Origin: Candidatus Sungbacteria bacterium RIFCSPLOWO2_01_FULL_47_32
GTDB lineage: Bacteria > Patescibacteriota > Minisyncoccia > Sungbacterales > GWA2-42-14
Length of the DNA: 64,000 nucleotides
Assembly (NCBI GenBank): GCA_001820685.1
Contig: MHQP01000009.1
Span: 808 to 64,807 of the forward strand
Direction: 5' to 3'
Below are positions 1 to 35,743 of this stretch, one piece after another. The notes beneath the pieces are model-generated. The model was not told the DNA's origin and made no database searches. It saw nothing but the letters and a program-made list of their open reading frames with translations. The position numbers and the translations under genes are program-made. The stretch's first letter is position 1, and each line of letters begins with the position of its first letter.

Positions 1-370
1 TCTTATGGCGGCAAACTCCGAATTCAAGTTTAATCTTTATGCCTTTATTATACACCCGAAGCGGCACTAATGTCAAGCCTTTTTGCGCCGATTTTCCGAT
101 GAGTTCGCGAATTTCTGATTTATGCAATAGAAGTTTTCTTGTTCTGTCCTGCTCGTAACCGCCAGGAGTATTTTTTGCCTGATACGGAGGAATAGAGGCG
201 CCGAGCAAAAAAGCTTCGCTCCCGCGGATAACGACGAACGAGCCCGAAAGATTCATTCTGCCGGAGCGCACCGCCTTCACTTCGTGCCCGAGCAACTCCA
301 AACCGGCCTCGTAAAGTTCGAGTATTTCATAATCGAAATATGCGCGTTTGTTGGTGGCCATCGGCTGCAT
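1..370 (-). CDS. smpB: SsrA-binding protein SmpB (C-terminal ~25 aa lost at window edge)
   Basis: Hand translation of the minus strand from ATG 370..368 has no stops to position 2: MQPMATNKRAYFDYEILELYEAGLELLGHEVKAVRSGRMNLSGSFVVIRGSEAFLLGASIPPYQ...DRTRKLLLHKSEIREL...VYNKGIKIKLEFGVCRHK. This is collinear with the SmpB signatures NKRA..Y...E.EAGL.L.G.EVKS.R.G..N...S.V..R..EAFL.GA.I.PY and TRKLLL. The ORF runs off the window edge, so it is absent from the ORF track. Confidence 0.8.
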   Translation of the reverse strand, partial: MQPMATNKRAYFDYEILELYEAGLELLGHEVKAVRSGRMNLSGSFVVIRGSEAFLLGASIPPYQAKNTPGGYEQDRTRKLLLHKSEIRELIGKSAQKGLTLVPLRVYNKGIKIKLEFGVCRHK

Positions 371-509
371 ATGATAAGAGTATCCCAGAATATTGCATTT
401 TTGAAGAGGGAACAAGAGGCGATGAATGGAATAGAAAAATGCTTGAAATCATGAAAAAAATGTGATAGTGTACGCCCACTGTTGTTCCTTTAAAAAAGAG
501 GCATTGCTC

Positions 510-1928
510 ATGTGCGGAATCATCGGAGCTATTTCCGAGAACGGCGGAGTCGCGCAGGATATTTATCCCGGGCTTTGGTCGCTTCAGCACCGCGGGAAAG
601 AAAGTGCCGGCATTATTACATATGACGGGCAAAAGTATCACAAAAAGAAAGACATGGGAACGGTAGAAGTTGTTTTCGGGAATGACGCCCTCTTGGGCCT
701 TGCGGGAGGTGCCGGCATTGGGCATGTGCGCTATTCAACGACGGGGCCGAACTCGGCCGAAAATATCCAGCCGGTTGAGGGCTCGTTCCGGAGCATTCCG
801 TTTTGGATAGGACATAACGGCAACTTTACGAACACCGAAGAACTTCGCGCCGAGTGCGAGAGTAAAGGATATTACTTCAAAACAACAACCGACACTGAAG
901 TTCTTGCGGCCCTCATTTTCCTTCATGGGCTTGGAGGACAAAAAAGTTTTGAATATGCCCTGAAGCTTTCTCTCAAAAAGATCGAGGGAACATACTCCAT
1001 TGTCGTGCTCTATAAAAACACAGTGTACGGCGTTGTGGACCCGACTGCAAACAGGCCGCTTGTGTATGGGGAGGGAAGGGGTCTCCGGGTTCTTGCGTCG
1101 GAGTCGGCCGCGTGCGACGTTCTTGGAATAAAATATCTTCGCGATGTAGGCCCCTGCGAGCTCATTATTTTACAAACGACGCCCACCTATCTTCAAAGGG
1201 ACCACATAGGCGATCATGCTGACGACTCTTCTCTTAAACAAAAATTCTGCATTTTTGAATATGTTTACTTTTTGCGTCCCGACAGCAAATTTGACGGAAG
1301 AAGGGCTCAATCTACCCGGGAAGAAATGGGCAAGCGGCTTTGGAAAGAATCGCCCGTTTCGGCGGATATCGTCGTACCGATTCCGGACTCCGGAAACTTT
1401 GCCGCCTCCGGTCTTGCCACGGAAGCAGGGCTCCCTTTTGTTATGGCATTCTTTCGGTCGCACTATGTCGGGCGCACGTTCATCGAGCCCATTCAGGAAC
1501 GGCGTGAAAAGGGCCTTCGGATAAAACTCAATATTATTCCCGAGCTTGTTGCCGGAAAACGGGTTGTCATTGTTGATGACTCCATCGTTCGTTCTACCGT
1601 TATAAAAAAAGTCATCGCGATGCTTCGCGAAGCGGGAGCGAAAGAAATTCATGTTCGAATCAGTTCTCCTTCTTATACTCATCCGTGCCATTACGGCATT
1701 GATACCTATCGGGTAAAGAACGAACTCATTGCCAAACGCCACGGAGGCAATAGTGAAGCCATTCGAGAAGAAATTGGCGCGGATTCGCTTCACCATCTAA
1801 GCCTTGAAGGACTTAAGGAATCAGTGTGGGTTTCGCGCGACAAAACAGTCTCTCGTTTTGGAAAGGAACAGATGTGCGATGCATGTTTTTCGGGAACATA
1901 TCATATTCCAATCAAAGAAAGGAAGTAA
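510..1928 (+). CDS. purF: amidophosphoribosyltransferase (class-II Gln amidotransferase + PRTase)
   Basis: Starts MCGIIGA (Ntn Cys). Has a PRTase P-loop region VVIVDDSIVRSTV. C-terminal Cys ligands. SD aagagg lies 8 nt upstream of ATG 510 (Met 17 of the track ORF). Confidence 0.9.
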   Translation: MCGIIGAISENGGVAQDIYPGLWSLQHRGKESAGIITYDGQKYHKKKDMGTVEVVFGNDALLGLAGGAGIGHVRYSTTGPNSAENIQPVEGSFRSIPFWIGHNGNFTNTEELRAECESKGYYFKTTTDTEVLAALIFLHGLGGQKSFEYALKLSLKKIEGTYSIVVLYKNTVYGVVDPTANRPLVYGEGRGLRVLASESAACDVLGIKYLRDVGPCELIILQTTPTYLQRDHIGDHADDSSLKQKFCIFEYVYFLRPDSKFDGRRAQSTREEMGKRLWKESPVSADIVVPIPDSGNFAASGLATEAGLPFVMAFFRSHYVGRTFIEPIQERREKGLRIKLNIIPELVAGKRVVIVDDSIVRSTVIKKVIAMLREAGAKEIHVRISSPSYTHPCHYGIDTYRVKNELIAKRHGGNSEAIREEIGADSLHHLSLEGLKESVWVSRDKTVSRFGKEQMCDACFSGTYHIPIKERK

Positions 1929-2007: not shown

Positions 2008-2325
2008 ATGGTACATTTTTTTTATGTTCTTTTAAGGTGGAGAGACTTCGTGGCAGAAGTTTTGTGTATAGAACCGAGTGATCGCGATATAAAACTTCAG
2101 GCAATTAAGGACTATGTCTGGCGCGAGCGGATGCGGAGTGATATCACAATTCTTGGATATACCTATCGGTTCGAACTTGGATGTTGGGGGTGTGGAGAAT
2201 TTTTTAACCTTGTTGAGTGCCAGCTTTTATCTACAAAAGAAGGATACGGCGGTTGGCAGGAGCTCAAACACGATGGCATACTCGACGGGGTGTATGAATA
2301 TGTAACGAAAGGGAGGCGCGGTTAG
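2008..2325 (+). CDS. hypothetical small protein (105 aa; alternative GTG start at 2050 with a GGTGGAG SD)
   Basis: Track ORF with no recognisable motif. A TTGACT(1989-1994)-N17-TACATT(2012-2017) promoter-like pair would favour the GTG 2050 start. A terminator follows. Confidence 0.35.
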   Translation: MVHFFYVLLRWRDFVAEVLCIEPSDRDIKLQAIKDYVWRERMRSDITILGYTYRFELGCWGCGEFFNLVECQLLSTKEGYGGWQELKHDGILDGVYEYVTKGRRG

Positions 2326-2337
2326 CTTCTCTTATAA

Positions 2338-2360
2338 AGCGGCATTTTGCCGTTTTTTTC
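2338..2360 (+). terminator. intrinsic terminator
   Basis: Hairpin cggcattttgccg followed by ttttttt. Confidence 0.55.
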
Positions 2361-2397
2361 TTTTGCCTTATTCCCATTTTTTCGATAGAGTAAAGAT

Positions 2398-4110
2398 ATG
2401 ATACGCGAAGACATACGAAAAATCGTGCGGAATGCGGCCGAAAAAAAATTCGGCAATATTGGCGAGCCTGTTTTTACGGTTGAGGTTCCGGAAAATTCCG
2501 AACACGGCGACTACTCGACAAACATCGCGATGGCTCTTGCACGTACCATCAAAAAAAATCCGCTTGAAATTGCAGCGTTATTGACGGAAAGCTTAAAGGC
2601 TGAAAAGTTATTTTCCTCGGTCGCGGCTGCACCTCCCGGATTTATTAATTTCCGGCTGAATGAGGTAAATCTACTTTCTGAAATTCAAAAAAAGCTCAAA
2701 AACAAAAAAGCGTTCGGAAAAACTAATGTAGGCAAAGGCAAAACAGTTCTTGTCGAATACTTCCAGTTAAACATCGCAAAGCGCCCTCATGTGGGGCATC
2801 TTCGCTCTGCCGTTATTGGAGACGCCTTAAAACGGGTGCTTCTTTTGTCCGGATACAAAGCCGTTTCAGACACGCACGTGGGGGACTGGGGAACGCAGTT
2901 TGGGATTTTGCTTCTTGGCTTCAAAGAGGCCGGAATGTCCGTCAAAGACAAAAAAGTTTTGGCCGATCCATTTGGAGTACTTGAAGAGCTCTATATTAAG
3001 GAAAATGAAAAGATAGAAGCCGATTCGGACAGACGTGAGAAAGCAAAACTTGAGTTCGCAAAGCTAGAAAAAGGAGACAGAGAAAACAGAAAAATCTGGA
3101 AATGGATGGTTGATATTTCGATGAAGAATCTTGAAACATCAGCGCACCATCTCGGGCTTTTGAAGTTTGACGAACACAAAGGCGAAAGTTCATACGAAAA
3201 AGATATGCCAGGAATTGTGGCTCTCGCGTTTACAAAAAGGGTTGCTATAAAGAAAGACGGCGCTGCGATCGTTGACCTTTCGGACGAAAAACTTGACGAG
3301 GCGGTGCTTGTAAAGTCCGACGGAGCCTCAACATACCTTCTGCGCGACCTTGCGACAATTCAATACCGCGAAAAAAAGAAATATTTTAAAAACTTATATG
3401 TGGTTGATGTGCGCCAACAGCACCATTTTAGACAAGTTCATTTCGTTGCCGCGAGCCTCGGATTTAATTTTGAAGGAGAATCCCGCCTTGTTGAATTCGG
3501 CGCAATGACGCTTCCGGAAGGGAAAATGAGCACGCGCAAAGGCAACATTATTTCGCTTGAAAGTCTTTTGAAAGAGGCGGGCGAGCGGGCGCTCAAGGTC
3601 ATTAAAGAAAAAAATCCGGAATTGAAAAATATGGGGAGCGTTGCCGGAGCGGTCGGGCTTGGAGCCATAAAATATTTTGATCTTTCGCGAAACCGTAAAT
3701 CCGATATTGTATTTCGTTGGGAAGACGCACTTGCGTTTGAAGGAAATACCGGGCCGTATTTGCAATATACCCACGCGCGCCTTAAAAGCATTCTTAGGAA
3801 AGCGAAAAAAACGGTGAAGCTTCCTAAAAATATTCCGGTGTTGAGCGACTTAGAACACGAAATTCTTTCGCGTATTCTTTCGTTTGAAGAAGCTATCGAA
3901 GACTCTCTTGCGTCATATGCTCCGAACATTCTTGCGAACTACCTTCACTCGCTTGCCCAAAACGTGAATGAGTTTTATCATTCACACCCCGTTTTGAATG
4001 AACCGGATGAGGGCAAGAAAGCAGTTCGTCTGATGCTCGTTGAATCGTCTACAACCGCCTTAAAGCAAGGGCTTTGGTGTTTGGGGATTGTGGCGCCGGA
4101 AGAAATGTAG
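2398..4110 (+). CDS. argS: arginyl-tRNA synthetase
   Basis: Class I HVGH (HVGHLRSAVIGD). DALR-type anticodon-binding C-terminus. ArgS N-terminal add-on domain. 570 aa. Confidence 0.92.
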   Translation: MIREDIRKIVRNAAEKKFGNIGEPVFTVEVPENSEHGDYSTNIAMALARTIKKNPLEIAALLTESLKAEKLFSSVAAAPPGFINFRLNEVNLLSEIQKKLKNKKAFGKTNVGKGKTVLVEYFQLNIAKRPHVGHLRSAVIGDALKRVLLLSGYKAVSDTHVGDWGTQFGILLLGFKEAGMSVKDKKVLADPFGVLEELYIKENEKIEADSDRREKAKLEFAKLEKGDRENRKIWKWMVDISMKNLETSAHHLGLLKFDEHKGESSYEKDMPGIVALAFTKRVAIKKDGAAIVDLSDEKLDEAVLVKSDGASTYLLRDLATIQYREKKKYFKNLYVVDVRQQHHFRQVHFVAASLGFNFEGESRLVEFGAMTLPEGKMSTRKGNIISLESLLKEAGERALKVIKEKNPELKNMGSVAGAVGLGAIKYFDLSRNRKSDIVFRWEDALAFEGNTGPYLQYTHARLKSILRKAKKTVKLPKNIPVLSDLEHEILSRILSFEEAIEDSLASYAPNILANYLHSLAQNVNEFYHSHPVLNEPDEGKKAVRLMLVESSTTALKQGLWCLGIVAPEEM

Positions 4111-5599: not shown

Positions 5600-8500
5600 A
5601 TGCCGGACGATTCAAAACAACTAAACCTGCCCAAGCGCGAGGAAGAGGTGCTCAAGCTATGGGAGACAGAGGGCACATTTGAGAGGAGCCTTGAGAAAAC
5701 GAAAAAAGGAAAGCTTTTTACGTTCTTCGAAGGGCCTCCAACAGCAAATGCCGCTCCAGGCATCCACCACCTTGAATCGCGCGCCTTTAAGGACATTATT
5801 CCTCGCTATAAAACTATGCGCGGTTTTTTTGTTCCAAGAAAAGCAGGCTGGGACACGCACGGGCTTCCGGTCGAAATTCAGGTTGAAAAAGCCCTCGGCC
5901 TCAAGACAAAAAAAGATATTGAAGCATACGGTATCGCGGCATTCAACGAAAAATGCCGGGAGTCCGTGTGGCAATTCAAAGAAGCATGGGAAAAATCAAC
6001 CAAGCGAATCGGATTTTGGCTTGACCTTAAACAACCATATATAACTTACCAATCGGAATATATGGAAAGCCTATGGTGGATAATCAAAGAGATATGGAAA
6101 AAAGGACTATTGTATCAGGACTTCAAGGTAATTCCGTGGTGCTCCCGGTGCGGTACGGGGCTTTCAACGCATGAGCTGGGACAGCCCGGAGCGTATCGTT
6201 CGGTCAAAGAAAATTCCGTTTTTGTGAAGTTAAAAATAATGACCACGGGGCACACGAACGAATATCTGCTCGTGTGGACGACGACACCGTGGACGCTTTC
6301 CGCGAACGTTGCGGTCGCGGTCAATCCAAAAATAGATTACACAAAATTCAAGATTGGGGGCGAATACGTTTGGTCTGCCACACCGCCTCCGTACGGGCAG
6401 GGGGAGGAGATTGGGGTAATTGAAAAAGTTTCGGGGAGGTCTCTCCTTGGAATAATCTACGAACCGCTTTACCGGATTCCGAAAGAATATTCTCTCGGCG
6501 GCACTACCGAATACTCCGTTATCGGAGGAGATTTTGTTTCGACGGAAGACGGAACGGGCATGGTGCACATAGCGCCTGCGTTTGGGGATGAAGATATGAT
6601 TGCGGCAAAAAAAACATGGGGAGAAAAGTATCCGATATTCCATACCGTCAACCTCGACGGTACGATGAAGCGTGGCCTTGTTGGAGAAGGAAAATTCGCA
6701 AAAGATGCTGATGCTGAAATTGTGGAAGAACTTAAAAAGAGAGGGGTGGTGTACAAGGTAAAACCGTTCGAACATGATTATCCGTTTTGCTGGAGGTGTG
6801 GGACCGCCCTTCTCTATTTTGCAAAAAACGCCTGGTGGATAAAAATGTCGGGCTTCAAGGAAAAACTTCTTCAAAACAACGCGACAATCAACTGGGTTCC
6901 GGAACACATTAAAGAAGGGCGGTTCGGAGAATTCTTGCGAGAAGTGCGCGACTGGGCTTTTTCTCGCGACCGGTTTTGGGGAACTCCGCTTCCTGTGTGG
7001 CAATGCGAAGGATGCGGATATCAAGACATCATAGGCTCTTTTGGCGAACTTGATGCGAAAAGCGGGGGCGCTAAGAACAAATATTTGGTCATGCGGCACG
7101 GAGAATCAGAGTCAAATATACAAAATATCTGTGGGGCCAAGGATGGCTATTCGCTGACGCTCAAGGGCAGAACAGAAGTTGAAAAAGCGATTCGAATTCT
7201 GAAGAAGGAAAACATTGATGCCATTTTTGCTTCTCCGATAACCCGAACCAAAGAAACCGCAGAGATTGTGGGAGAATTCCTCGGAAAGACAATTCGCTAC
7301 GACGCGCGGCTTCGCGAGATTAACGTCGGAGACTTCGAAGGGCGGCTTGATCACCTGTATCATAGTTACTTTTCTTCGCATATCGAAAAATTCACCAAAC
7401 GCCCCCCGAACGGAGAAACGTTAAGTGATCTTCGCAGACGCATGATGGATTTTATTGAAGAAATCGAAAAAAAATTTTCAGGCAAAAAAATTCTTATCGT
7501 GAGCCATGAATATCCGATTTGGATGCTTGCAAGCGGCTCTCTCGGCTGGTCGAATGAAGCGACCATTACCGCGCACACCGGCACGAGGGCCGATGATTTC
7601 ATTGATTTTGCCGAGGTACAAGAGCTTTTGTACAAAAAATTACCGCGGGATAATACCGGCGCGGTCAACGTCCATCGGCCGTATAGTGATGAGTTTCGTT
7701 TGCCATGCCCGAAATGCAAAAAGTCGATGAAGCGCGTTTCAGAAGTCGTTGATGTGTGGTTTGACTCCGGGGCAATGCCGTTTGCACAGTCGCATTTTCC
7801 GTTTGCTTTCGAAAAAGGCTCAAAACCAAAAGAAAAACTTTTATTTCCTGCGGAATATATTTCCGAGGCGGTTGACCAGACGCGCGGGTGGTTTTATACG
7901 CTTCTTGCCGTCTCCACACTCCTTGGAAAAGGGGCGCCTTATAAAAATGTTGTTTCTTTGGGGCATGTTCTCGATAAAAATGGACAGAAAATGTCGAAGT
8001 CAAAAGAGAATGTCGTGCGCCCGGACGAAATGATACAAAAATACGGAGCCGACACAATCCGGTGGTATTTCTATTCCATCAACGCTCCGGGCGAGCCGAA
8101 GAAATTCGACGAGAAGGATCTGCAAAACAAACTCCGTGGATTTTTAGGGACACTCTGGAATAGTTTCATTCTTTTCGAAACATATGTTTCGAAAACAAAA
8201 CCCTCAGCGTCGAGCAAAAATATTCTTGACCGGTGGATAGTTGCGCGAACAAACGAGCTTGTTTCAACTGTTTCAAAAGGCCTGGATACTTACGATATTA
8301 CGGGAGCCGCGCGCGCGATAGAAGAGTTCACGATAGGCGATTTTTCAAACTGGTATTTGCGGCGTTCCCGAAGGCGTTTCCAGAAGTCTAAAAGCGCCGT
8401 CGAAAAAAAAGCAGCTACCGAAACAACCGCGTATGTTCTTCTTACTCTTGCAAAACTTACCGCTCCATTCATGCCCTTTGTGGCGGAAATTTTATGGCAG

Positions 8501-9085
8501 GGATTAAGAAAACACTGCGGATTCAAAGAAAAATCCGTGCATCTTTCCGGGTGGCCAAAGACGGAGTTAAGAGTTAAGAATGAAGAATTAAGAATTATTA
8601 AGGAGATGAAAATGGTGCGTGGGGTGGTTGCGGAAGCGCTGAAACTTCGGGCGAGTGTCGGAATAAAGGTGAGACAGCCTCTCGCTTCACTTCAATTCCC
8701 AATTTCCAAACTCAAATTTCAAAACACGAAAGAACTTTTCAGCCTAATAAGAGAAGAAGTAAATGTAAAAGAAGTTATTGACGGAAAAGAATTGAAACTC
8801 GATACCGTGATAACTCCCGAACTGAAAGAAGAAGGGGTTGCCAGGGAGGTTATACGAAACCTTCAGGAGATGAGAAAAGATCTTGGGCTTGAGCCGAAAA
8901 ACAAGATTCGCGCGCAGTTTTCATCTTCTTCGGAGCTTGAAGAGCTACTCTCGCGGCGGGAAAAGTTCATCAAAGAAGAGGCCGGAGCTACCCTCCTGGT
9001 TTTCGGCGGAAAAAAAGTATTTAAAGGAGAACACGAAGTTTTGGTAGACGGCGTGACACTTTGGATTGGGATTAGCCGGCAGTAA
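5600..9085 (+). CDS. ileS: isoleucyl-tRNA synthetase, type 2, with an inserted histidine-phosphatase (PGAM-like) domain
   Basis: [32 protein letters not shown] aligns with type-2 IleS PPTANG.PHVGH...KD..[20 protein letters not shown]. CP1 editing domain. [24 protein letters not shown]. KMSKS. Residues ~485-690 ([13 protein letters not shown] ... ILIVSHEYP) are a histidine phosphatase domain inserted between QCEGCG and CPKC. Confidence 0.9.
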   Translation: [1161 protein letters not shown]

Positions 9086-9186: not shown

Positions 9187-9729
9187 ATGGATATGCATTT
9201 TACCGACGGCATCATTTTAAAAAAAGACCAATACCGCGAAGCGGATTTCCTTATTACTGTTCTTACGAAAGATTTTGGAAAAATCCGGCTTGCGGCTCGT
9301 GGCGTTAGGAAGCAGGAGGCAAAACTTCGCGGGCATATTGAGGTTCTCATGCGTTCTTTTTTCGGGTTTGTTCTCACAAAAAGCGGGTACCGGCTAACCT
9401 CTGCCGATATGAAGGAATGCTATCCGAACATTCGTTCGCACCCCGAGCTCATGCGCGCGACATACTCTGTTTTCCGGCTGATTGATGCAAACACGTTTGA
9501 GGAGAGAGAAGACCCCCGCCTTTTTGAAATAACGTTGGCATTTCTTTTGGAGATGGAACGCGGGGACGACGTAACTCCCGAGGCTCTCAATGCCTGTTTA
9601 TACCGCTTTTATGCCTTGTTTCTTGATATTTCAGGGCTTCTTCCGGACCCCACCCCTCTTGAGACATCCGCTATCGACGCGATACTCGCAACACACCTTG
9701 GATTTAAAACGGAAACACTTCTGATATAA
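9187..9729 (+). CDS. recO: DNA repair protein RecO (short, 180 aa)
   Basis: N-terminal OB fold: GIILKKDQYREADFLITVLTKDFGKIRLAARGVRK. Typical RecO is ~240 aa, so the C-terminal region looks reduced. Confidence 0.65.
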   Translation: MDMHFTDGIILKKDQYREADFLITVLTKDFGKIRLAARGVRKQEAKLRGHIEVLMRSFFGFVLTKSGYRLTSADMKECYPNIRSHPELMRATYSVFRLIDANTFEEREDPRLFEITLAFLLEMERGDDVTPEALNACLYRFYALFLDISGLLPDPTPLETSAIDAILATHLGFKTETLLI

Positions 9730-9743
9730 TAGAAGGAGCAAGT

Positions 9744-11681
9744 TTGGATACTCATATGCCAGAAAAAATAAACGAACTTAAAGAAAAACTATACTCACGC
9801 GAAGGTCCGGGAGAACGCAAACCCGCAGACGAATTGCACGAGGTACATCGTTCACGCGAGGAAAAGGCAAAAACGCGGTGGGAAGAAGAGGGCGCGAGCC
9901 TTCCCGGGAAAATTCTTCAGCGGGAAGAAGCGGAAGCCAAACCGAAGCGTTCAAAACTTTTCATCGCGGTCATGGTGGTATCCCTCATTTTGCTTTTGGG
10001 AGCGGGCAGTTTTATTTTTTATAGTCTCTACTACAAAAAGAGCGGAGTTTCGCTTGAACTCATCGGAAAAGATACGGTGGAGGCCGGAGACGCGGAGGTG
10101 TGGGTTGTTATCGTCCGGAACGAAGGAGACATCCCGCTGATAAAAAACGAACTCACATTTGCCTATCCAAAAGGAGCTATTCCTCTCGCGGGGGGGGCGA
10201 CAGATCCGTCCGTTCTTCATCCAAAGATATTGATAGATTCAATACAGCCTCGCGAAGAAAAGAGGTTTGAATTTACCGCGCGCCTTTTCGGAAGTGCCGA
10301 CGAGAAAAAAATAGCCGACGCTGGCCTCATCTATCGTCCCGAAAATGTTTCTTCGCGCCTCACAAAACGGGCAAGCTTTAAAACTTCCATTTCACGGGTT
10401 CCGTTCGCTATCGCATATACTGTTTCCCCGGAAATTGTTGGAGGACAAGCTGTCTCGTTTACAGTCGATATAACGTCAAGCTCCAAAGCAACATTCGAAA
10501 ACATGTATGTGAGGATTGATTATCCAGCCGGGTTCCAGTTTGCGTCTGCGGAAGCGGCTCCGGATATTGAGAAGAACATCTGGAGGCTCGGGAATATTTC
10601 GCCAGGGGAGACGCGGCGTATTACCGTTCACGGAACGCTTGCCGGTACACCTGAAGAATTAAAGCCTATTATTGCAAGTTTCGGAGAATATAACCCCGAT
10701 ACGCGCCAATGGAAAGTCTACCTTGAAGGAAGAGGAGAGACTCGCATTTCTTCTCCTCCTCTTTTTGTCCGCCACGAGGTAAATGGGGGAGCGACACATA
10801 CCGGTAGTTTTGGAGATAATATTCAATTCCGGATATTTTATAAAAATACGCTCGGTGTTCTACTGAAAGATGTTTTTATCCGGACAAAAATAAGCGAGGG
10901 CCTCTTAAACATGCGCCAGCTTCATCCCCAATTCGGATTTTACGACGGGCAGACGCACGAAATAGTCTGGAACGCGGCTTCTAACCCGGAACTCAAAGAA
11001 GTTCTTCCCGGAGTAGAGAAAAGCGTTTTCTTTTCCGTCACAACACTTCCTACTCCGCCCGTGCACCAGCCCTCCGATAAAAATTTTGTTCTTGATGTTC
11101 ACACGCGTATCAACACACGGACCGTTCCAAAAGAATATTCCGGCATCAAAATAGAATACGAAAACACTCTTTCGATCAAAATGAAGTCGCGTCTGACACT
11201 TTCTTCTAAATCGATATTCTATGACTCTCCTTTAGGTCCGAATATTGGGAAACTTCCTCCGCGCTCAAACCAGGAAACTGGCTACACCATCCTTATGCAG
11301 GTCGTAAATACCTCAAGCGACCTTAAAGATGCGAAGGTTATGTTCGCGTTACCTGGCAATGTTCGCTGGACGGGCCAGCTAGCGGGGGACAAGACCGAAC
11401 GGGTAAACTACAATCTTTCATCAGGGGAAGCAAGCTGGAATATTGGTGACCTTCCGGCTGGCACCGGCGTTCTGAAGCCTCCGCTCCTTCTTGCGTTCAA
11501 CGTGGTACTGACACCGGGAGCCGATAGCATCGGACAGACCACGATCCTTATAAAGGATATTGCCATTACGGGAACAGATACATTTGCCGGGACAGATTTA
11601 AAAGCGGCAAATAGCGACATTACAACGAGTCTCCAGCAGGATCCGAAAGCGAAAAATTCCGATTGGGCGGTTGGTGAGTAA
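9744..11681 (+). CDS. hypothetical membrane-anchored extracellular protein with beta-sandwich-like repeats (645 aa)
   Basis: Charged N-terminus, then TM FIAVMVVSLILLLGAGSFIFYSL. Long beta-rich body of the DUF11/CARDB-like style. No enzymatic motif. Confidence 0.6.
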   Translation: MDTHMPEKINELKEKLYSREGPGERKPADELHEVHRSREEKAKTRWEEEGASLPGKILQREEAEAKPKRSKLFIAVMVVSLILLLGAGSFIFYSLYYKKSGVSLELIGKDTVEAGDAEVWVVIVRNEGDIPLIKNELTFAYPKGAIPLAGGATDPSVLHPKILIDSIQPREEKRFEFTARLFGSADEKKIADAGLIYRPENVSSRLTKRASFKTSISRVPFAIAYTVSPEIVGGQAVSFTVDITSSSKATFENMYVRIDYPAGFQFASAEAAPDIEKNIWRLGNISPGETRRITVHGTLAGTPEELKPIIASFGEYNPDTRQWKVYLEGRGETRISSPPLFVRHEVNGGATHTGSFGDNIQFRIFYKNTLGVLLKDVFIRTKISEGLLNMRQLHPQFGFYDGQTHEIVWNAASNPELKEVLPGVEKSVFFSVTTLPTPPVHQPSDKNFVLDVHTRINTRTVPKEYSGIKIEYENTLSIKMKSRLTLSSKSIFYDSPLGPNIGKLPPRSNQETGYTILMQVVNTSSDLKDAKVMFALPGNVRWTGQLAGDKTERVNYNLSSGEASWNIGDLPAGTGVLKPPLLLAFNVVLTPGADSIGQTTILIKDIAITGTDTFAGTDLKAANSDITTSLQQDPKAKNSDWAVGE

Positions 11682-11771
11682 AAAAGAGGAAAAACAGTGT
11701 TTTCACGCTGTTTTTCTGTTCTTGCAATTGCCTGCCAAAAGGAATACTATATACGTACATTAGGCGTTTTT

Positions 11772-13121
11772 ATGGAAGAAAAAGCAAAAAAACAGAAAAC
11801 GAATGAGCCTGTGTCTCCTCTTATGGAGCGTCTCGTAAGTCTCGCAAAGCGCCGAGGCTTTATTTATGCAGGCTCCGAAATTTATGGAGGGCTTGGCGGA
11901 ACATGGGACTACGGTCCTCTCGGGGTTGAGCTTAAAAATAATATCAAAAAAGAGTGGTGGAAGAGATTTGTTTCATACAGGCGAGACATGTACGGCATTG
12001 ATTCTTCCATTCTCATGAACTCAAAAGTATGGGAAGCATCGGGGCATCTGAAAAATTTCGTCGACCCGATGGTGGATTGCAAGAAGTGCAAAGGAAGATT
12101 TCGGGCTGATAAAATTGATGTTTCAAGCGGCTGTCCTACGTGCGGAGCAAAAGACTTTACCGAAGCGCGCCCGTTCAATATGATGTTCAAAACGCACGCG
12201 GGGCCGGTTGAAGATTCCGGTGCTGAGGTTTATTTGCGTCCGGAAACCGCGCAGGGCATGTTCGTCAATTTTAAGAACGTCATTGATTCATTCCATCCGA
12301 AGCTCCCGTTCGGCATAGCACAGATAGGGAAAGCATTCAGAAATGAAATTACTCCCGGAAATTTTATTTTTAGGACGCGCGAATTTGAGCAGATGGAAAT
12401 AGAATATTTTATAAAACCTGGCGGATGGGAGAGTCAGTTTGATTATTGGCTCGGCGAAATGAGAAAATGGACGGAGTTTCTCGGAATTGCGAAAGGCGTT
12501 TCGGAGCGGGAGGTTTCTGCCGAAGACCGCGCGCATTACTCGAAGCGCACGATTGATATTGATTTCGAATTTCCGTTCGGGAAAGAAGAACTCTACGGCC
12601 TTGCGTATCGAACCGACTTTGACCTTAAAAACCATATAGAAAAATCCGGCATTGACCTTGTGTACTATAATGAAGAAACAAAAAAAAAGCTCGTACCGCA
12701 CGTTATTGAGCCGACATTCGGGGTAGACAGAACGATGCTCGCGGTTCTTCTCAATTCGTTCGCGGAAGAAGAGGTAAAAGAAGGCGAGATACGCGCGGTT
12801 TTGAAATTTCCCGCGCGTCTTGCTCCCGTAAAAGTCGCGGTTTTCCCGCTTGTCTCAAACAAAGAAAATATCCTTGCCAAGGCCGAAGAAGTGCATGGCA
12901 GGCTGAAAGAATCAATAGACAGCGTACGATGGGACGATATCGGAAACATCGGAAAGAGATATCGAAGACAAGACGAGATAGGAACACCGTGGTGCGTTAC
13001 TGTGGACTATCAAACACTTGAGGACGGAACAGTTACGGTGCGGGATAGGGATACAATGAAGCAAGAGCGAATTGCGGCGGGTGAACTAGCCGGCTATTTT
13101 CACAAGAAGTTAAGTCAATAA
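11772..13121 (+). CDS. glyQS: glycyl-tRNA synthetase (alpha2 class II type)
   Basis: MERLVSLAKRRGFIYAGSEIYGGLGGTWDYGPLG is the class II GlyRS N-terminus. Anticodon-binding domain at the C-terminus. Met 26 of the track ORF. Confidence 0.9.
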   Translation: MEEKAKKQKTNEPVSPLMERLVSLAKRRGFIYAGSEIYGGLGGTWDYGPLGVELKNNIKKEWWKRFVSYRRDMYGIDSSILMNSKVWEASGHLKNFVDPMVDCKKCKGRFRADKIDVSSGCPTCGAKDFTEARPFNMMFKTHAGPVEDSGAEVYLRPETAQGMFVNFKNVIDSFHPKLPFGIAQIGKAFRNEITPGNFIFRTREFEQMEIEYFIKPGGWESQFDYWLGEMRKWTEFLGIAKGVSEREVSAEDRAHYSKRTIDIDFEFPFGKEELYGLAYRTDFDLKNHIEKSGIDLVYYNEETKKKLVPHVIEPTFGVDRTMLAVLLNSFAEEEVKEGEIRAVLKFPARLAPVKVAVFPLVSNKENILAKAEEVHGRLKESIDSVRWDDIGNIGKRYRRQDEIGTPWCVTVDYQTLEDGTVTVRDRDTMKQERIAAGELAGYFHKKLSQ

Positions 13122-17528: not shown

Positions 17529-19046
17529 ATGTCAAAAAAAGGGTATCATAAAGCCATTGCCATGTCAATTCACGCCAAGGAAAAATTCTATATTACGACC
17601 GCCATTGATTATGCCAATGCGAAGCCCCATATCGGCCATGCTTTGGAAAAGATTCAGGCGGATGTATTTGCTCGCTACTACCGCATTAAAAGGGAGGAAG
17701 TTTTCTTTTTGACGGGTTCTGACGAGCACGGCGTTAAAATTGTTCGTGCGGCAGAAGCGGCAGGGAAAGATCAGAAGGCCTTTGTCGACGGGAACACCGA
17801 AGCCTTTAAAAATTTGAAAAATATCCTGAACTTGTCATGGGATAGATTTATTCGAACAAGCGACGTTAATCAACACTGGCCCGGAGCTCAAAAGCTGTGG
17901 ACGAAAATTTTTGAAGCGGGGGACTTATATAAAAAGAAATACCGGGGACTTTACTGTATTGGCCACGAAGCGTTTGTAACGGAAAAAGACCTTGAAGGAG
18001 GTATTTGCCGCGACCATAAAAAAGCCCCCGAGGCTGTCGAGGAGGAAAATTGGTTTTTCAGGCTTTCGAAGTATTCGAAAGAAATTGAATTAAAAATTAA
18101 GAATGACGAGTTACGAATAATTCCGAATTCACGAAAAAATGAAATTCTGGCCCTGTGCGAGCAAGGCTTAGACGACGTGAGTTTTTCGCGTCCGCGAAAA
18201 GACCTCTCGTGGGGCATTCCCGTCCCGAATGACCCGGAGCATACGATGTATGTCTGGTGCGACGCGCTTGCGAATTACATCACGGCCGTCGGGTACGAAA
18301 ATGAAACTCCGGAGTTCAAAAAGTGGTGGCCGGCGGATATGCATGTTATAGGAAAAGATATTTTAAGGTTCCATGCCGCAATTTGGCCGGGGATGCTGCT
18401 CTCTGCCGGACTGCCTCTTCCCAAGTCCGTTTTTGTCCACGGATTCATCACGGTAGAAAGAGAAAAAATGTCGAAAACAGTCGGGAACATTATCGGTGCC
18501 GAGGAGCTTATACAAAAATACGGAACAGACCCCGTGAGGTATTATTTGCTCCGCGAAATTCCGTCATACGAAGACGGCGATTTCAGCTATAAAAAATTCG
18601 AGGAGCGATACAACGGCGACCTTGCAAACGGCATCGGCAATCTTGTTTCCAGGGTTGCAACAATAGGGCAAAAACTTGGGAACATTCCTTTTAATTTCGC
18701 AGAGGACATTGTTCCGGGGACGAAAGAAAAAAATAGCTCCGTATTTGCTCTCTATGACGAAAAAGTTGCCGCGGGACGCCTGAATGAAGCGCTTGGGGTA
18801 GTTTGGGAGCTTGTCGGGTTTGCGGATCGTTATATAAATGAGCAAAAACCTTGGGCAATAAAAGATGAAGCAATATTAAAAACTGTCATTATAAACGCTT
18901 CGTGGTGCATCGGCTCCATCGGGAATCTTCTTGCGCCGTTTCTTCCTGAAACGTCGGAGCGTATTTTGTCGCAAATAAAATTTTCAAAGGATGCGCTTGA
19001 AATAAAAAAAGAGGGAACACTATTCCCCAGATTGAAAACAGACTAG
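17529..19046 (+). CDS. metG: methionyl-tRNA synthetase (short form)
   Basis: AKPHIGHALEKIQADVFARYYRIK (HIGH). KMSKTVGNII. A possible start at ATG 17562 gives an N-terminus MSIHAKEKFYITT. Confidence 0.92.
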   Translation: MSKKGYHKAIAMSIHAKEKFYITTAIDYANAKPHIGHALEKIQADVFARYYRIKREEVFFLTGSDEHGVKIVRAAEAAGKDQKAFVDGNTEAFKNLKNILNLSWDRFIRTSDVNQHWPGAQKLWTKIFEAGDLYKKKYRGLYCIGHEAFVTEKDLEGGICRDHKKAPEAVEEENWFFRLSKYSKEIELKIKNDELRIIPNSRKNEILALCEQGLDDVSFSRPRKDLSWGIPVPNDPEHTMYVWCDALANYITAVGYENETPEFKKWWPADMHVIGKDILRFHAAIWPGMLLSAGLPLPKSVFVHGFITVEREKMSKTVGNIIGAEELIQKYGTDPVRYYLLREIPSYEDGDFSYKKFEERYNGDLANGIGNLVSRVATIGQKLGNIPFNFAEDIVPGTKEKNSSVFALYDEKVAAGRLNEALGVVWELVGFADRYINEQKPWAIKDEAILKTVIINASWCIGSIGNLLAPFLPETSERILSQIKFSKDALEIKKEGTLFPRLKTD

Positions 19047-22168: not shown

Positions 22169-24631
22169 ATGTCCATGAAATATAATCCCGGAAAAATTGA
22201 AAGTAAATGGAAAAAGCTCTGGCTCAAGAAAAAAATATACGAGCCGGATCTTAAAAATGCGGAGCGTCCGTTCTATACCCTCATGATGTTTCCATATCCT
22301 TCGGCTGAAGGACTTCACATCGGAGGAGTGAGAACATTCACCGGTGTTGATATATACGGCCGGTTTAAAAGGATGCAGGGATACGACGTGTTTGAGCCAA
22401 TCGGGCTTGATGGTTTTGGAATACACTCCGAAAATTACGCTTTGAAGATCGGAAAACACCCCACGCGCCTTGTCCCCATAACGGAAAAAAATTTTTATCG
22501 CCAGCTTGTCGCAACAGGAAACGCGTTTTCCTGGGATGAAGCGCTTGAGACATATGATCCGGACTATTACCGATGGACGCAATGGATATTTATCCAGATG
22601 TTCAAGCGGGGCCTCGCATACCGCAAAAAAGCGAAGGTGAACTGGTGCCCGTCATGCCTTACGGTGCTTGCGGATGAACAGGTTGTTTCCGGCGAATGCG
22701 AACGATGCGGCTCGCCTACTATCAAAAAAGACCTCGAACAATGGTTTTTTAAAATTACAGATTATGCGGAACGCCTGTTAAACAATCTTCCTAAGCTTGA
22801 CTGGTCGGAAAATATAAAAATTGCCCAAGAACACTGGATAGGTAGATCGGAAGGGGCATTGATAAAATTTCCAATTCTCGATTCTCAAATTTCAATCGAG
22901 GTGTTTACCACGCGGCCGGATACGCTTTTTGGCGCAACATATATGGTAGTGGCCCCGGAACACCCGCTTGTCGAAACATTAAAGAACCGAATACAAAACT
23001 GGAAAGAAGCCGAAAAATATATTTCTGCGGCCGCGAAAAGGTCCGAAATAGAACGTACTGCCGAAGGGAAGGAAAAAACCGGAGTTGAGCTGAAGGGCGT
23101 GCGTGCGATTAACCCGGCAAACAAAGAAGAAATCCCCGTGTATATTGCGGATTATGTCCTTTTCGGATATGGGACCGGAGCTGTCATGGCGGTTCCTGCG
23201 CATGACGCGCGCGACTATGCCTTCGCGAAAAAATTCAATATTCCCGCGCCTGTTGTCATTGACGGCGGACAGGAAGAAATGCTTTATGTCGGCGCGGGAC
23301 GTCTTATTAATTCCGGAAAATTTTCAAGCATGCAGTCGGATGAGGCAAAACGAGCCATTACGGAATTCGTCGGAGGAACTCTCAAGGTTCAGTATCGTCT
23401 TCGTGACTGGCTTATTTCGCGCCAGCGCTACTGGGGACCGCCAATTCCTATGATATTTTGCGGAGTATGCGAAAAGGCTGGCATGGGAGAACGGAAAGAC
23501 GCGCTGGGCTGGTACACGGTTCCCGAAAGCGAACTTCCGGTGAGGCTTCCCTTTGTAAAAGATTTCAGACCGAAAGGAACCGGAGAATCGCCGCTTGCTT
23601 CGGTAAAATCTTTTTATGAAATTCCCTGCCCGAAGTGCCACAAACCTGCGCGGCGGGAGACGGATGTTTCCGACACATTTCTCGATTCGGCATGGTATTT
23701 TCTCCGTTATCCTTCTGTTTCCGACAGCCGCCAGGCTTGGAATTCCGGCATAACGAACCGGTGGCTTCCTGTCCACATGTATATCGGAGGAGCAGAACAC
23801 GCCGTCTTACATTTGCTGTATGCGCGATTTCTTACGATGGTGTTTTATGACTGGAAGCTGGTTGGTTTTGAAGAACCGTTCACAACATTTCGCGCGCATG
23901 GGCTTATTACGAAAGGCGGAGCAAAAATGTCAAAGTCAAAAGGCAATGTGGTAAATCCCGATGACTATTTCAAGCGTTACGGCGCGGATACTATGAGAAT
24001 GTACCTCGCATTCCTTGCCCCGTTTGCTGAAGGCGGAGATTTTCAGGATTCCGGAATTGCCGGCATTACGCGGTTTCTTAACCGCGTGTGGGAGTTTAGC
24101 AATGCGCACGCAAAAAAGACCTCTTCGGAATTCTCTCCAGGCGATGAAAAGGTAATAAAGTCGGTGCATAAGGCGGTAAAAAAGGTCACGGAAGACATCG
24201 CGGAGCTTCACTATAATACCGCCATTTCTGCCCTCATGGTTTTATTAAACGAATTTGAGGCAAAACCTGCCGCGGTGAACAGAGAAGACGTCGGAATATT
24301 TCTGAAATTGCTCGCGCCATTCGCTCCATTCATCACGGAAGAATTATGGCAAAAGTTTTTTGCCGATAAAAAATCCAGGAGCCACTCAATACACCTCGAA
24401 TCGTGGCCAGCATTTGATAAGAAATTGATCGTTGATGAAACGGTTGTTGTCGTCGTTCAGGTAAACGGCGTTATGCGCGACAAATTCGAAATTAAAAATG
24501 ACGCTTCTGAAGAAGAGGTGAGAACCAAAGTGCTGTCTCTTGAAAAAGTAAAGCACTATGTTCCGGATGTTTCAAAAATAAAGAAATTCATTTATATCAA
24601 AAACAAAATAGCAAATATCGTCTTGCAATGA
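22169..24631 (+). CDS. leuS: leucyl-tRNA synthetase
   Basis: MFPYPSAEGLHIGGVRTF. Editing domain. KMSKSKGNVV. 820 aa. Confidence 0.92.
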   Translation: MSMKYNPGKIESKWKKLWLKKKIYEPDLKNAERPFYTLMMFPYPSAEGLHIGGVRTFTGVDIYGRFKRMQGYDVFEPIGLDGFGIHSENYALKIGKHPTRLVPITEKNFYRQLVATGNAFSWDEALETYDPDYYRWTQWIFIQMFKRGLAYRKKAKVNWCPSCLTVLADEQVVSGECERCGSPTIKKDLEQWFFKITDYAERLLNNLPKLDWSENIKIAQEHWIGRSEGALIKFPILDSQISIEVFTTRPDTLFGATYMVVAPEHPLVETLKNRIQNWKEAEKYISAAAKRSEIERTAEGKEKTGVELKGVRAINPANKEEIPVYIADYVLFGYGTGAVMAVPAHDARDYAFAKKFNIPAPVVIDGGQEEMLYVGAGRLINSGKFSSMQSDEAKRAITEFVGGTLKVQYRLRDWLISRQRYWGPPIPMIFCGVCEKAGMGERKDALGWYTVPESELPVRLPFVKDFRPKGTGESPLASVKSFYEIPCPKCHKPARRETDVSDTFLDSAWYFLRYPSVSDSRQAWNSGITNRWLPVHMYIGGAEHAVLHLLYARFLTMVFYDWKLVGFEEPFTTFRAHGLITKGGAKMSKSKGNVVNPDDYFKRYGADTMRMYLAFLAPFAEGGDFQDSGIAGITRFLNRVWEFSNAHAKKTSSEFSPGDEKVIKSVHKAVKKVTEDIAELHYNTAISALMVLLNEFEAKPAAVNREDVGIFLKLLAPFAPFITEELWQKFFADKKSRSHSIHLESWPAFDKKLIVDETVVVVVQVNGVMRDKFEIKNDASEEEVRTKVLSLEKVKHYVPDVSKIKKFIYIKNKIANIVLQ

Positions 24632-30701: not shown

Positions 30702-32429
30702 ATGACCATTGAGGAAATCATAAAAAAAGCTGAAGTAAAGCTTACGCTTAACGACTCAGATAAAGAACGCATTATGCGCGCATTTGAATTTGCAAAAGCG
30801 GCTCACGGAGTGCAAAAGCGAAAATCGGGGGATTTGTATATTGAACATCCTCTTATGGTTGCGTATGGCGTTGCTGAAATGGGATTGGACGCCTCGGCAA
30901 TCGTGGCAGCCCTTCTCCACGACGTCTGCGAAGACACGACATGCGCCCCCGAGACGCTTGAGAAAAATTTTGGGAAAGATGTTTTGTTTTTGGTTGACGG
31001 CGTTACAAAACTCGACAAGATACGCTTCCACGGGACCGAACGCGAGGCCGAAAATCTCCGGAAGATGTTTCTTGCCATTGCCGAAGACATCCGCGTCGTT
31101 TTGATAAAACTCATGGACAGGCGCCACAACATGAAAACTCTTTCCTCTCTTCCTCCGGAAAAGCAAAAACGCATAGCTCTTGAAACGCTCGAGCTGTATG
31201 CACCGCTCGCGTATCGCCTTGGCATCGGAGAAATAAAAGGACAGCTTGAAGATCTTGCGTTCCCGTACGTATATCCGAAGGAACATGAGTGGCTTATAGA
31301 GCAGGTAAAAGACCCGTTGGTTCTGCGCCAAAAATATGCCGAACGCCTCATTCCTCTCGTGAAAAAAGAACTTGAGGCGGAAAACATCCACTATCGCGAT
31401 GTCCACGGCCGGGGCAAGCATTTATTCAGCCTGTACAAAAAACTCTTAAAATATGAAATGGATATCAATAAAATATTCGACCTTGTCGCGGTCAGAGTCG
31501 TTGTAGGAACCATTGAAGAGTGTTATGGCGCTCTGGGGGTTGTTCATAAGCTCTGGAGGCCTATGCCGGGGCTTGTAAAGGACTACATCGCTCTTCCCAA
31601 ACCGAACGGATACCGCTCCATTCACACAACAGTTTTCGGGCCGGAGGGAAGAGTAACCGAATTTCAGATACGGACGGAAGAAATGCATATTCAGGCCGAA
31701 CAGGGTATTGCCGCCCACTGGGCGTATTCCGAAAGCAAAAGCGGAAATATCTACCGCGAGCGGCAGACGGTTTTTGCCGACAAAAAACAGCTTGAGTGGG
31801 TAAATCAGCTTCGCGATTGGCAAAAAGAATTCAGGAATCCGGATGAATTTATAGAATCCCTCAAGATAGATTTTTTCAAAAACCGCATTTTCGTCTTAAC
31901 TCCCAAGGGGGACGTTATTGATCTTCCCGAGGGGGCAACGCCCGTGGATTTTGCGTATCAGGTGCACACAGACATCGGAAATCAGGCCGCAGGAGCGCGG
32001 GTAAACGCAAAAATGGTTCCGCTTGACCATGAACTCCACAATGGAGACGTTATCGAGGTTATTACGCAAAAAAATAAAAAGCCGAGTTCCGACTGGCTAA
32101 AATTCGTCAAGACAGCGGGCGCTAAAAAACGCATCCAGGTGGCTCTCCGCGAAACGCGTGAAGCCATAGCGTTCTCCCGGCGAGGCGGGCAAATGGTTGA
32201 ATTGAGGCTCGCGATAAAAGACAGAATAGGCCTCTTGAAGGATGTTTCGGAGATTGTCGCCGATTTTAAGATAAACATGAAAAGCATTACGAGCGAAACA
32301 AAGAACAGGCTTTATCCGCTTATCGTTATTCACGCTCCGTTTAAAAACAAGGAACAGCTTGAAAAAATGATGGTAAAGATGAAAAACATTACCGGTGTAG
32401 AAGAAGTGAGCTACACATTTATAAACTAA
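30702..32429 (+). CDS. rel: bifunctional (p)ppGpp synthetase/hydrolase, RelA/SpoT family (short, 575 aa)
   Basis: HD domain (HPLMVAYGVA ... LLHDVCEDT). Synthetase domain. TGS and ACT-like C-terminus. Confidence 0.88.
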   Translation: MTIEEIIKKAEVKLTLNDSDKERIMRAFEFAKAAHGVQKRKSGDLYIEHPLMVAYGVAEMGLDASAIVAALLHDVCEDTTCAPETLEKNFGKDVLFLVDGVTKLDKIRFHGTEREAENLRKMFLAIAEDIRVVLIKLMDRRHNMKTLSSLPPEKQKRIALETLELYAPLAYRLGIGEIKGQLEDLAFPYVYPKEHEWLIEQVKDPLVLRQKYAERLIPLVKKELEAENIHYRDVHGRGKHLFSLYKKLLKYEMDINKIFDLVAVRVVVGTIEECYGALGVVHKLWRPMPGLVKDYIALPKPNGYRSIHTTVFGPEGRVTEFQIRTEEMHIQAEQGIAAHWAYSESKSGNIYRERQTVFADKKQLEWVNQLRDWQKEFRNPDEFIESLKIDFFKNRIFVLTPKGDVIDLPEGATPVDFAYQVHTDIGNQAAGARVNAKMVPLDHELHNGDVIEVITQKNKKPSSDWLKFVKTAGAKKRIQVALRETREAIAFSRRGGQMVELRLAIKDRIGLLKDVSEIVADFKINMKSITSETKNRLYPLIVIHAPFKNKEQLEKMMVKMKNITGVEEVSYTFIN

Positions 32430-35660: not shown

Positions 35661-35743
35661 GGGCGAGTGGCGGAATGGCAGACGCAATGGACTCAAAATC
35701 CATCGGGGGCAACCCCATGAGAGTTCGACTCTCTCCTCGCCCA
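35661..35743 (+). tRNA. tRNA-Leu (anticodon CAA), type II with long variable arm; CCA not encoded
   Basis: Folded by hand. Acceptor gggcgag/ctcgccc. Anticodon stem atgga/tccat with loop cuCAAaa. Variable arm cgggggcaaccccat. T-arm gagag-ttcgact-ctctc. Discriminator A. Confidence 0.8.

Follow-up and report, generated by a model that had tools for sequence, protein, structure and literature searches.

The window analysed here is a stretch of 64,000 nucleotides from Candidatus Sungbacteria bacterium RIFCSPLOWO2_01_FULL_47_32 (contig MHQP01000009.1, positions 808 to 64,807), and its gene ileS encodes an isoleucyl-tRNA synthetase (IleRS) with a second enzyme domain built into it. The inserted domain lies in the zinc knuckle of the synthetase and is shown here to be a complete small branch-1 histidine phosphatase of the PhoE/CobC/PspA/GpgP-like kind, and not a phosphoglycerate mutase. 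The fusion is not peculiar to the window gene, and represents a large Patescibacterial family. In Patescibacteria this one phosphatase family takes four forms, namely a gene adjacent to ileS, an insert in the CP3 subdomain of IleRS (the majority), inserts in other loops or in multiple copies, and an insert in valyl-tRNA synthetase (ValRS). These four forms show the phosphatase to be tied to the synthetase as a dedicated partner, and not as a chance passenger. Judged by its conserved residues and by a structural model, the domain is likely to be a catalytically competent phosphatase that is functionally coupled to IleRS and ValRS.

A histidine phosphatase within the CP3 zinc knuckle

A first-pass annotation, made from the letters of the window alone, had placed a histidine phosphatase domain between the QCEGCG and CPKC motifs of a type-2 IleRS, with both catalytic histidines intact and the HRPY and VDVWFDSG motifs resuming behind it. 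These points are borne out. The best solved relative of the window IleRS is Thermus thermophilus (T. thermophilus) IleRS (1ile, E 9e-234), followed by Priestia megaterium (P. megaterium) IleRS2 (8c8w, E 2.5e-224), and each aligns in two collinear blocks around the insert. Residues 8-480 of 1ile correspond to residues 8-488 of the window protein and residues 489-820 to 690-1021, leaving amino acids 489-689 unmatched. The insert is flanked by the CxxC pairs of the CP3 zinc knuckle, one on either side, and the zinc motif of T. thermophilus IleRS is likewise in the CP3 subdomain (PMC7191050). Behind the insert, HRPY and VDVWFDSG follow in one uninterrupted open reading frame (ORF).

The Pfam model His_Phos_1 (PF00300) recognises the insert with 130.2 bits in the whole protein (E 9.7e-38) and with 134.5 bits in the excised segment (E 4.9e-39), against a gathering score of 21.7. 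An AlphaFold2 model of residues 451-737, built on a 25-sequence alignment, has a mean pLDDT of 88 and a pTM of 0.84, with high confidence at both junctions between the insert and the CP3 hairpin, and the phosphatase domain is predicted by this model to be rigid on the hairpin. A Foldseek search of the model against the PDB returns histidine phosphatases and mutases only. The top matches, at probability 1.0 and a target-normalised TM of 0.72-0.78, are 4ij6, 6s2q, 6e4b, 4pza, 9mmh and 1h2e, with PspA, GpgP, CobC, HFP and PhoE among them. By sequence, the nearest solved proteins are PhoE (1ebb/1h2e, E 5e-13) and PspA (4ij5), then GpgP, HFP and CobC, these five ranging from E 5e-13 to 7e-7, and fructose-2,6-bisphosphatase domains. 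The domain is small and its cap region is short, as in SixA or PhoE, and both catalytic histidines, H500 and H636, are present.

Other origins of the insert were considered and rejected. An intein or another mobile protein insertion is set aside, as Pfam finds only His_Phos_1 in the insert, the junctions are modelled as continuous with the CP3 hairpin, and the GC content is uniform. It stays between 0.44 and 0.48 along ileS, and there is therefore no sign of a recent foreign insertion or of an assembly chimera. An assembly or frameshift artefact is excluded by the number of independent genomes that carry the fusion. A component of a defence system was also dropped, since the PADLOC models give no match for the insert or for one free-standing homologue.

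The synthetase around the insert was described by the first-pass annotation as type-2, and this description is upheld by its closest relatives, named above, and by its C-terminus, which is the type-2 domain (DUF5915) rather than the type-1 zinc-binding C-terminus. The protein passes the curated NCBIfam ileS equivalog TIGR00392 with 821.5 bits against a cut-off of 621.4, and its Pfam domains are tRNA-synt_1, His_Phos_1, Anticodon_1 and DUF5915. WTTTPWTL and GTGMVHIAPAFGDED match the editing domain of 1ile, and the isolated editing-domain chains 1wk8 and 1wny also match. The class I signature motif has the swapped form GIHH and not HxGH; this G/AXHH form is documented only in IleRS2, where it confers mupirocin hyper-resistance (PMC10485003). 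With its editing, GIHH, KMSKS and anticodon-binding parts intact, the synthetase body looks fully functional by its sequence, as a housekeeping type-2 IleRS.

Breadth of the fused family

The fused family was surveyed in two ways. In a search of 1.84 billion cluster representatives (50% identity), the junction-spanning segment of residues 451-737 as query retrieves 207 clusters at E<=1e-30. Most of the best 150 clusters match continuously from query residue 1 to about residue 285, at about residue 450-500 of proteins that are 1100-1200 residues long. Domain mapping of the cluster proteins gives an N-terminal IleRS part, the phosphatase and a C-terminal IleRS part, with the junctions at identical IleRS positions. 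The second survey scanned one genome per GTDB species with a 5-sequence alignment of the insert and yielded at least 507 confirmed stretches, and the locus counts given here rest on the best 80 of these. [quoted passage not shown] The same-site insert is present in the IleRS of 68 of the 80 loci, 11 loci carry a free-standing gene of about 200 residues, and one carries a ValRS.

In public records the fused proteins are annotated as 'class I tRNA ligase family protein' or as 'histidine phosphatase family protein, partial'. The protein homologue search listed only matches of at most 497 residues, and the window protein itself was absent, which suggests a length or fragment bias; full-length architectures were taken from the cluster representatives and from translated loci.

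The catalytic residues are conserved far beyond the rest of the domain. In the 227 fused domains compared, among them second and third copies, the arginine and the histidine of the RHG motif are each kept in 227, the second arginine in 226 and the second histidine in 227. The acidic residue is glutamate in 210 and aspartate in 15 (225/227 together), and the equivalent of N506 is kept in 197. Overall identity among these domains is only 31-50%, and a near-invariant catalytic set at such identity is the pattern expected for selection on catalysis. The first-pass annotation had suggested that the insert may be active, and this near-invariance strengthens the suggestion. The zinc knuckle is less constant: of 65 fused IleRS, 40 keep both zinc-ligand pairs and 16 have lost both, so the insert is not dependent on the metal site.

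Other insertion sites, multiple copies and ValRS

The CP3 knuckle is not the only position at which IleRS has taken up the domain. At site B, near residue 740 of the window protein, it is found in P0180 and P0242. At site C, near residues 864-870 and between the catalytic/stem-contact part and the anticodon-binding helices, it is found in P0207, P0215 and P0242. Tandem copies in CP3 occur in P0225, P0186, P0260 and P0259, and one tandem-copy variant is annotated as Candidatus Peribacteria. Some IleRS thus carry two or three catalytically intact phosphatase domains in proteins of 1419-1489 residues (P0242/P0385-P0389, P0215, P0207, P0180, P0225 and P0259/P0391). The 1419-residue form with two domains lies on six contigs of up to 1.06 Mb, and it is therefore not an assembly artefact.

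The domain has also entered ValRS. The one ValRS among the 80 loci (L073, 2267-5692, recognised by its Val_tRNA-synt_C domain) has the phosphatase at the equivalent of site B, and in the protein search PF00300 is present in at least 14 more ValRS fragment clusters (P0263-P0275, P0305 and P0378). In most ValRS cases the domain stands between VWYCxGCG and CxKCG...DTLDTWFSSG, which is the ValRS zinc knuckle and the exact counterpart of the IleRS site; in some it follows DTLDTWFSSG...WP. The ValRS domains are of the RHGETDWN type and group apart from the others by similarity. As to their origin, the present data are compatible with an independent capture as well as with a transfer from IleRS. No phosphatase domain is found in the LeuRS, MetRS and ArgRS encoded in the same window.

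Multiple copies could speak for a structural or oligomerisation module. In such a role the domain would hold two IleRS together, link IleRS to ValRS or bind its own second copy, and catalysis would be a side effect. Dimers are usual among histidine phosphatases of this kind, some IleRS hold two or three copies, and the domain is shared by IleRS and ValRS. The cyanobacterial CAAD domain additionally offers a precedent, as a domain that was inserted time and again and whose role is mainly one of structure or localisation (PMC4893482). However, the Arg/His/Arg/His set with its acidic residue is essentially invariant in the 227 fused domains, and we give a purely structural module very little chance.

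Gene neighbourhood and free-standing relatives

The window gene lies in the order argS-ileS-recO-DUF11, which is a conserved locus. In four other loci (L081, L082, L083 and L087) the order is argS-phosphatase-ileS with the phosphatase as a separate gene, and recO and DUF11 neighbours are also present in L081-L084 and L087. In all 11 free-standing loci among the best 80, the phosphatase lies directly upstream of an insert-less ileS (935-1006 residues) on the same strand. In one of them (L064, 4898-5920) a gene for a pyridoxal-phosphate-dependent (PALP) enzyme stands between the two. Three further free-standing relatives, P0024 (from a Portnoybacteria metagenome-assembled genome, MAG), P0033 and P0027, have the order argS-(small ORF)-phosphatase-ileS-recO-DUF11/CLIPPER. 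In the called genes, the phosphatase stop and the ileS start overlap by 4 nt in P0024 and by 10 nt in P0033, and are separated by 4 nt in P0027. Close free-standing relatives therefore stand beside an insert-less ileS in 14 of 14 cases. P0041 was considered as another free-standing case and was not counted, as it lies within an ileS that is broken into pieces, on a contig whose gene calls are split.

Two loci have unusual surroundings. In L084 (937-6869) argS and ileS are separated by an IS605 OrfB-like gene and a Cas1 gene. The ileS there, phosphatase included, is split into four gene calls, probably through frameshifts in a long-read contig, or else the gene is decaying. In L062 the gene upstream of the phosphatase (2167-3516) is not argS, and its product has an AGS_C (SMODS-associated sensor) domain.

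Beyond the close relatives, five free-standing His_Phos proteins of 31-33% identity have unrelated contexts, and none of them adjoins ileS; adjacency to ileS is therefore specific to the close subfamily. Within that subfamily, free-standing and inserted domains are interleaved by similarity, and the free-standing protein of L070 and the insert of L038, for example, share 58% identity. A neighbour-joining tree of the IleRS bodies places the unfused state at five positions at least, the basal group included; the tree is rough, being based on raw p-distances, and supports only a qualitative interspersion of the fused and the adjacent-gene states.

The neighbourhood also bears on the idea of a protein phosphatase that acts on the synthetase or on another translation factor, for example reversing a HipA-type toxin kinase or a regulatory kinase, in cis or on neighbours. 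The histidine phosphatase superfamily includes protein phosphatases (SixA, PGAM5 and Sts-1), and class I synthetases are known targets of HipA-family kinases. The small domain with a short cap, like that of SixA or PhoE, would suit this role, and action in trans would tolerate several insertion sites. However, no kinase is conserved in the argS-ileS-recO locus, a kinase directed at IleRS or ValRS is not known, the SixA model gives 28 bits against a cut-off of 74.5, and PADLOC has no match. We therefore regard a protein phosphatase as decidedly improbable.

Phosphatase subfamily

The first-pass annotation had called the insert PGAM-like, which is right for the fold and wrong for the family, as the insert fails every phosphoglycerate mutase model. 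Its best NCBIfam match is the short archaeal dPGM model (dPGM_arch), with 98-101 bits against a cut-off of 225. TIGR01258 (dPGM) gives 36.9 bits against 81.7, the GpmB model NF002901 61-66 bits against 261, and eight further dPGM or phosphoglyceromutase equivalog models remain below 45 bits against cut-offs above 300. In a BLAST comparison with E. coli GpmA, only the RHG-proximal residues 3-56 align. Membership in dPGM is rejected, with scores under every curated cut-off.

Other named families fare no better. Alpha-ribazole phosphatase CobC is rejected with 87-91 bits against 162.9 for TIGR03162 and 55-60 against 250 for NF011580. PspA-type phosphoserine phosphatase is rejected with 70-74 bits against 350 for NF045917, although 4ij6 is the best Foldseek match. 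SixA is rejected on the score given above. As the insert fails the curated CobC, PspA and dPGM thresholds, a substrate cannot be transferred from those families by homology.

These scores also bear on metabolic moonlighting, that is, a divergent phosphoglycerate mutase (PGM) or another central-metabolism phosphatase that is fused to ileS, or transcribed together with it, merely for the sake of co-expression in a streamlined genome, with no mechanistic link to aminoacylation. The dPGM_arch model is the best NCBIfam match, and no PGM is found among the 31 window ORFs scanned against Pfam. [quoted passage not shown] However, every dPGM model is far under its cut-off, the GpmA alignment covers 54 residues only, and the top structural matches are phosphatases. 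Co-expression alone also leaves the three internal sites, the tandem copies and the parallel insertion in the ValRS knuckle unexplained. Moonlighting of this kind is, in our judgement, improbable.

Proposed function and substrate

Following the chemistry of the family, H500 would attack a phosphomonoester held by R499, R549, H636 and N506. E573 would protonate the leaving group, and the phospho-histidine would then be hydrolysed. The enzyme may in this way remove a phosphate from something that IleRS and ValRS bind or produce. Such a substrate could be a 2'- or 3'-phosphate, or a pyrophosphate, at the CCA end of the tRNA, where it would prevent charging, or it could be a nucleoside monophosphate. 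The phosphatase would thus condition or repair a substrate for aminoacylation. The ligands of the partner enzyme that point towards such substrates are ATP, AMP and the tRNA CCA end. A phosphorylated tRNA end or a nucleotide is the substrate that we weakly prefer, as a tentative proposal, and taken by itself we hold it to be rather unlikely.

A more specific form of the proposal is a built-in RNA-end healing in the IleRS and ValRS of Patescibacteria. In it, the 2'/3'-phosphate or pyrophosphate would be removed from the tRNA CCA terminus, and the synthetase would thereupon mend its own tRNA and charge it again. The damage would come from cyclic-phosphate-forming nucleases (after action of a 2H esterase) or from toxSAS-type pyrophosphokinases, and CCA-end pyrophosphorylation by toxSAS toxins is a documented block of charging. 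For an RNA or nucleotide substrate in general, it is of note that CP3 starts directly after the RDWxxSRxRxWG linker, and this CP2-CP3 linker lines the pocket of the tRNA CCA end in yeast IleRS (PMC7955072). Additionally, the distant relative P0058 (32% identical, on many contigs) lies 19 nt after the genes for a 2H/LigT cyclic-phosphodiesterase and an MBL-fold protein (PF13483) in L085 (2674-4594). A homologue of this neighbouring MBL gene overlaps the stop of a fused ileS in L055 (5977-6630) and is nearby in L068 (7945-8436). No LigT/2H homologue is found outside L085 in the window and in all loci analysed. The MBL/LigT neighbourhood of P0058 may be a faint lead towards RNA-end processing. 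RNA-end healing as a whole appears doubtful to us, and we would call it unlikely.

Several points weigh against the reading as a coupled phosphatase and against this choice of substrate. The substrate is entirely inferred, and to our knowledge no member of the histidine phosphatase superfamily acts on RNA ends. Repair of tRNA ends would have no obvious reason to be confined to IleRS and ValRS, and the LigT genes stand beside a distant relative, in a single lineage of it. Three different surface positions, and an existence as a separate protein, are all tolerated by the domain; a precise positioning by the tRNA 3' end is therefore unlikely to be needed. The permissive sites resemble the insertion points of CAAD, which are on the face opposite the tRNA (PMC4893482). 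PGM is reported as patchy or undetected in some Parcubacteria, which leaves room for a metabolic role (PMC7304191). The taxon names come from the titles of MAG records, and some of these ('Saccharibacteria', and 'Gammaproteobacteria' in TPA assemblies) may be unreliable.

The first-pass annotation had proposed another nucleotide substrate, namely the diadenosine polyphosphates (ApnA) Ap4A and Ap3A made as by-products by synthetases. Synthetases can produce ApnA, and the domain would then sit on the very enzyme that makes its substrate. However, ApnA has no terminal phosphate, whereas branch-1 enzymes attack terminal phosphomonoesters via a phospho-histidine. The HIT, Nudix and ApaH families deal with ApnA, and IleRS is not a prominent producer. 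Hydrolysis of ApnA has next to no likelihood in our view.

A catalytic partner of IleRS and ValRS remains the reading that we favour. A second, unrelated catalytic centre is kept beside or inside IleRS and ValRS across a large part of the CPR, in three genomic arrangements and at several sites of insertion. Its persistence across lineages implies a selected, undescribed reaction linked to tRNA charging, and in minimal genomes a retained enzyme of 200 residues is unlikely to be dispensable. The substrate could reveal a repair step for tRNA or nucleotides, a regulatory phosphorylation cycle on the synthetase, or a link between translation and central metabolism. RNA-end healing, if true, would be an activity new to the histidine phosphatase superfamily, and it would add to translation a new step of quality control or immunity. 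The domain is also convenient as a lineage marker.

Features and other observations in the window

The features of ileS and of its neighbours are collected in Table 1.

Table 1. Coordinates of ileS, its inserted phosphatase and the flanking genes (window positions; residues of the 1161-residue protein)
Feature	Position	Residues	Strand	Remark
argS	2398-4110		+	Pfam tRNA-synt_1d, DALR_1, Arg_tRNA_synt_N
ileS, type-2 isoleucyl-tRNA synthetase with internal histidine phosphatase domain	5600-9085	1-1161	+	single uninterrupted ORF
N-terminal IleRS body	5600-7063	1-488	+	Rossmann N-half, CP core, CP1 editing domain, CP2, RDWAFSRDRFWG linker, start of CP3; aligns to 1ile 8-480
Class I signature motif GIHH	5759-5770	54-57	+	aligns with HVGH of 1ile
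Editing-domain motif WTTTPWTL	6275-6298		+	CP1
First zinc-knuckle pair CEGC	7004-7015	C469/C472	+	aligns with C461/C464 of 1ile (VCQACG)
Inserted segment, about 200 residues	7064-7666	489-689	+	complete branch-1 histidine phosphatase with short linkers; gap against 1ile
His_Phos_1 core (PF00300)	7085-7564	496-655	+	Pfam
RHG motif in KYLVMRHGESESN	7094-7102	R499, H500, G501	+	R499 and H500 at 7094-7099; H500 is the predicted phospho-accepting nucleophile
N506	7115-7117	506	+	
Second phosphate-pocket arginine in ASPITRTKETAEIV / SPITRTKETAEI	7244-7246	R549	+	
Predicted general acid in RLREI	7316-7318	E573	+	
Second catalytic histidine in ILIVSHE / ILIVSHEYPIWM	7505-7507	H636	+	
C-terminal IleRS body	7667-9085	690-1161	+	HRPY, DVWFDSG, KMSKS, anticodon-binding domain, type-2 C-terminal domain; aligns to 1ile 489-820
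HRPY	7673-7684		+	
Second zinc-knuckle pair CPKC	7706-7717	C703/C706	+	aligns with the C502/C504 region of 1ile
VDVWFDSG	7748-7771		+	DVWFDSG at 7751-7771
KMSKS	7988-8002	797-801	+	
Anticodon_1		877-1028		Pfam
DUF5915, type-2 C-terminal domain		1066-1160		Pfam
recO	9187-9729		+	Pfam RecO_N
DUF11/CLIPPER protein	9744-11681		+	Pfam DUF11

The first-pass annotation had also pointed to a second, free-standing PGAM-like protein at 35757-36518. The ORF exists, but it is no close paralogue of the insert (28% identity over 93 residues) and adjoins no synthetase; the true free-standing counterpart of the insert lies directly upstream of ileS in other lineages. It encodes a distant His_Phos_1 protein (Pfam E 3.6e-7) with RHG and SH motifs present. 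A tRNA-Leu(CAA) gene precedes it (35661-35743), and its stop overlaps the start of a 335-residue ORF (36518-37525) that has no Pfam match and only faintly resembles a CARF/HEPN-like model of PADLOC (E 2.5e-4). Both ORFs are unrelated to the IleRS insert.

The window additionally holds a cluster of synthetase genes, all without a phosphatase domain, comprising ArgRS, a class II HGTP-type synthetase (11697-13121), MetRS (17529-19046) and LeuRS (22169-24631). A long Rel/SpoT homologue with HD, synthetase, TGS and ACT domains is encoded at 30702-32429. A 1016-residue ORF at 49684-52734 joins an N-terminal family-2 glycosyltransferase to an AMMECR1 domain (residues 523-630), which is an unusual architecture.

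Relation to known systems

A literature search, the AARS Online paper included and subscription journals mostly outside its reach, found no description of an IleRS-histidine phosphatase fusion. Class I synthetases belong to the most thoroughly studied enzymes, and their known extra catalytic activity is the editing of wrongly activated amino acids. The fusion appears to be an undescribed combination, a synthetase with an accessory domain whose function is uncertain.

Among single enzymes, PhoE/YhfR (1ebb, 1h2e), PspA (4ij5/4ij6), GpgP Rv2419c (4pza), CobC (6e4b) and the riboflavin-pathway HFP (9mmh) share the fold and the catalytic residues of the insert. They differ in being free-standing metabolic enzymes, none of them part of a synthetase. 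The actinobacterial RNase H/acid phosphatase (Rv2228c type, NF005567) is the nearest case of a fusion with a nucleic-acid enzyme, to which a CobC-like phosphatase is joined there. The insert matches its phosphatase half with 86-90 bits against a cut-off of 326, and RNase H + His_Phos proteins are among the homologue matches (P0053 and P0089). That fusion is, however, terminal and not a loop insertion, and has another partner; we know of no resolved role for its phosphatase half.

Among synthetases, an IleRS with an N-acetyltransferase domain (NF040702, ileS_w_GNAT) is a precedent for an extra catalytic domain in IleRS, although the accessory domain there is GNAT; this model partly matches the body of the window IleRS. 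The IleRS2 enzymes with G/AXHH have a synthetase body of the same type as the window protein, and a phosphatase insert is not described there (PMC10485003).

The nearest parallel is CAAD, found in cyanobacterial ValRS, IleRS, LeuRS, GluRS, ArgRS, MetRS and CysRS (PMC4893482). There, as here, one domain with stand-alone homologues has been taken up again and again by monomeric class I synthetases of one phylum, at various internal positions on their surface. In one instance, gltX-curt1, the genes are adjacent in related species, an arrangement that came before the fusion and again resembles the phosphatase next to ileS (PMC4893482). The two differ in kind, as CAAD is a non-enzymatic two-helix membrane anchor, whereas the domain described here is a soluble enzyme with an invariant catalytic centre. 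After the CAAD of cyanobacteria, the phosphatase is thus a second natural case in which class I synthetases have convergently captured a domain.

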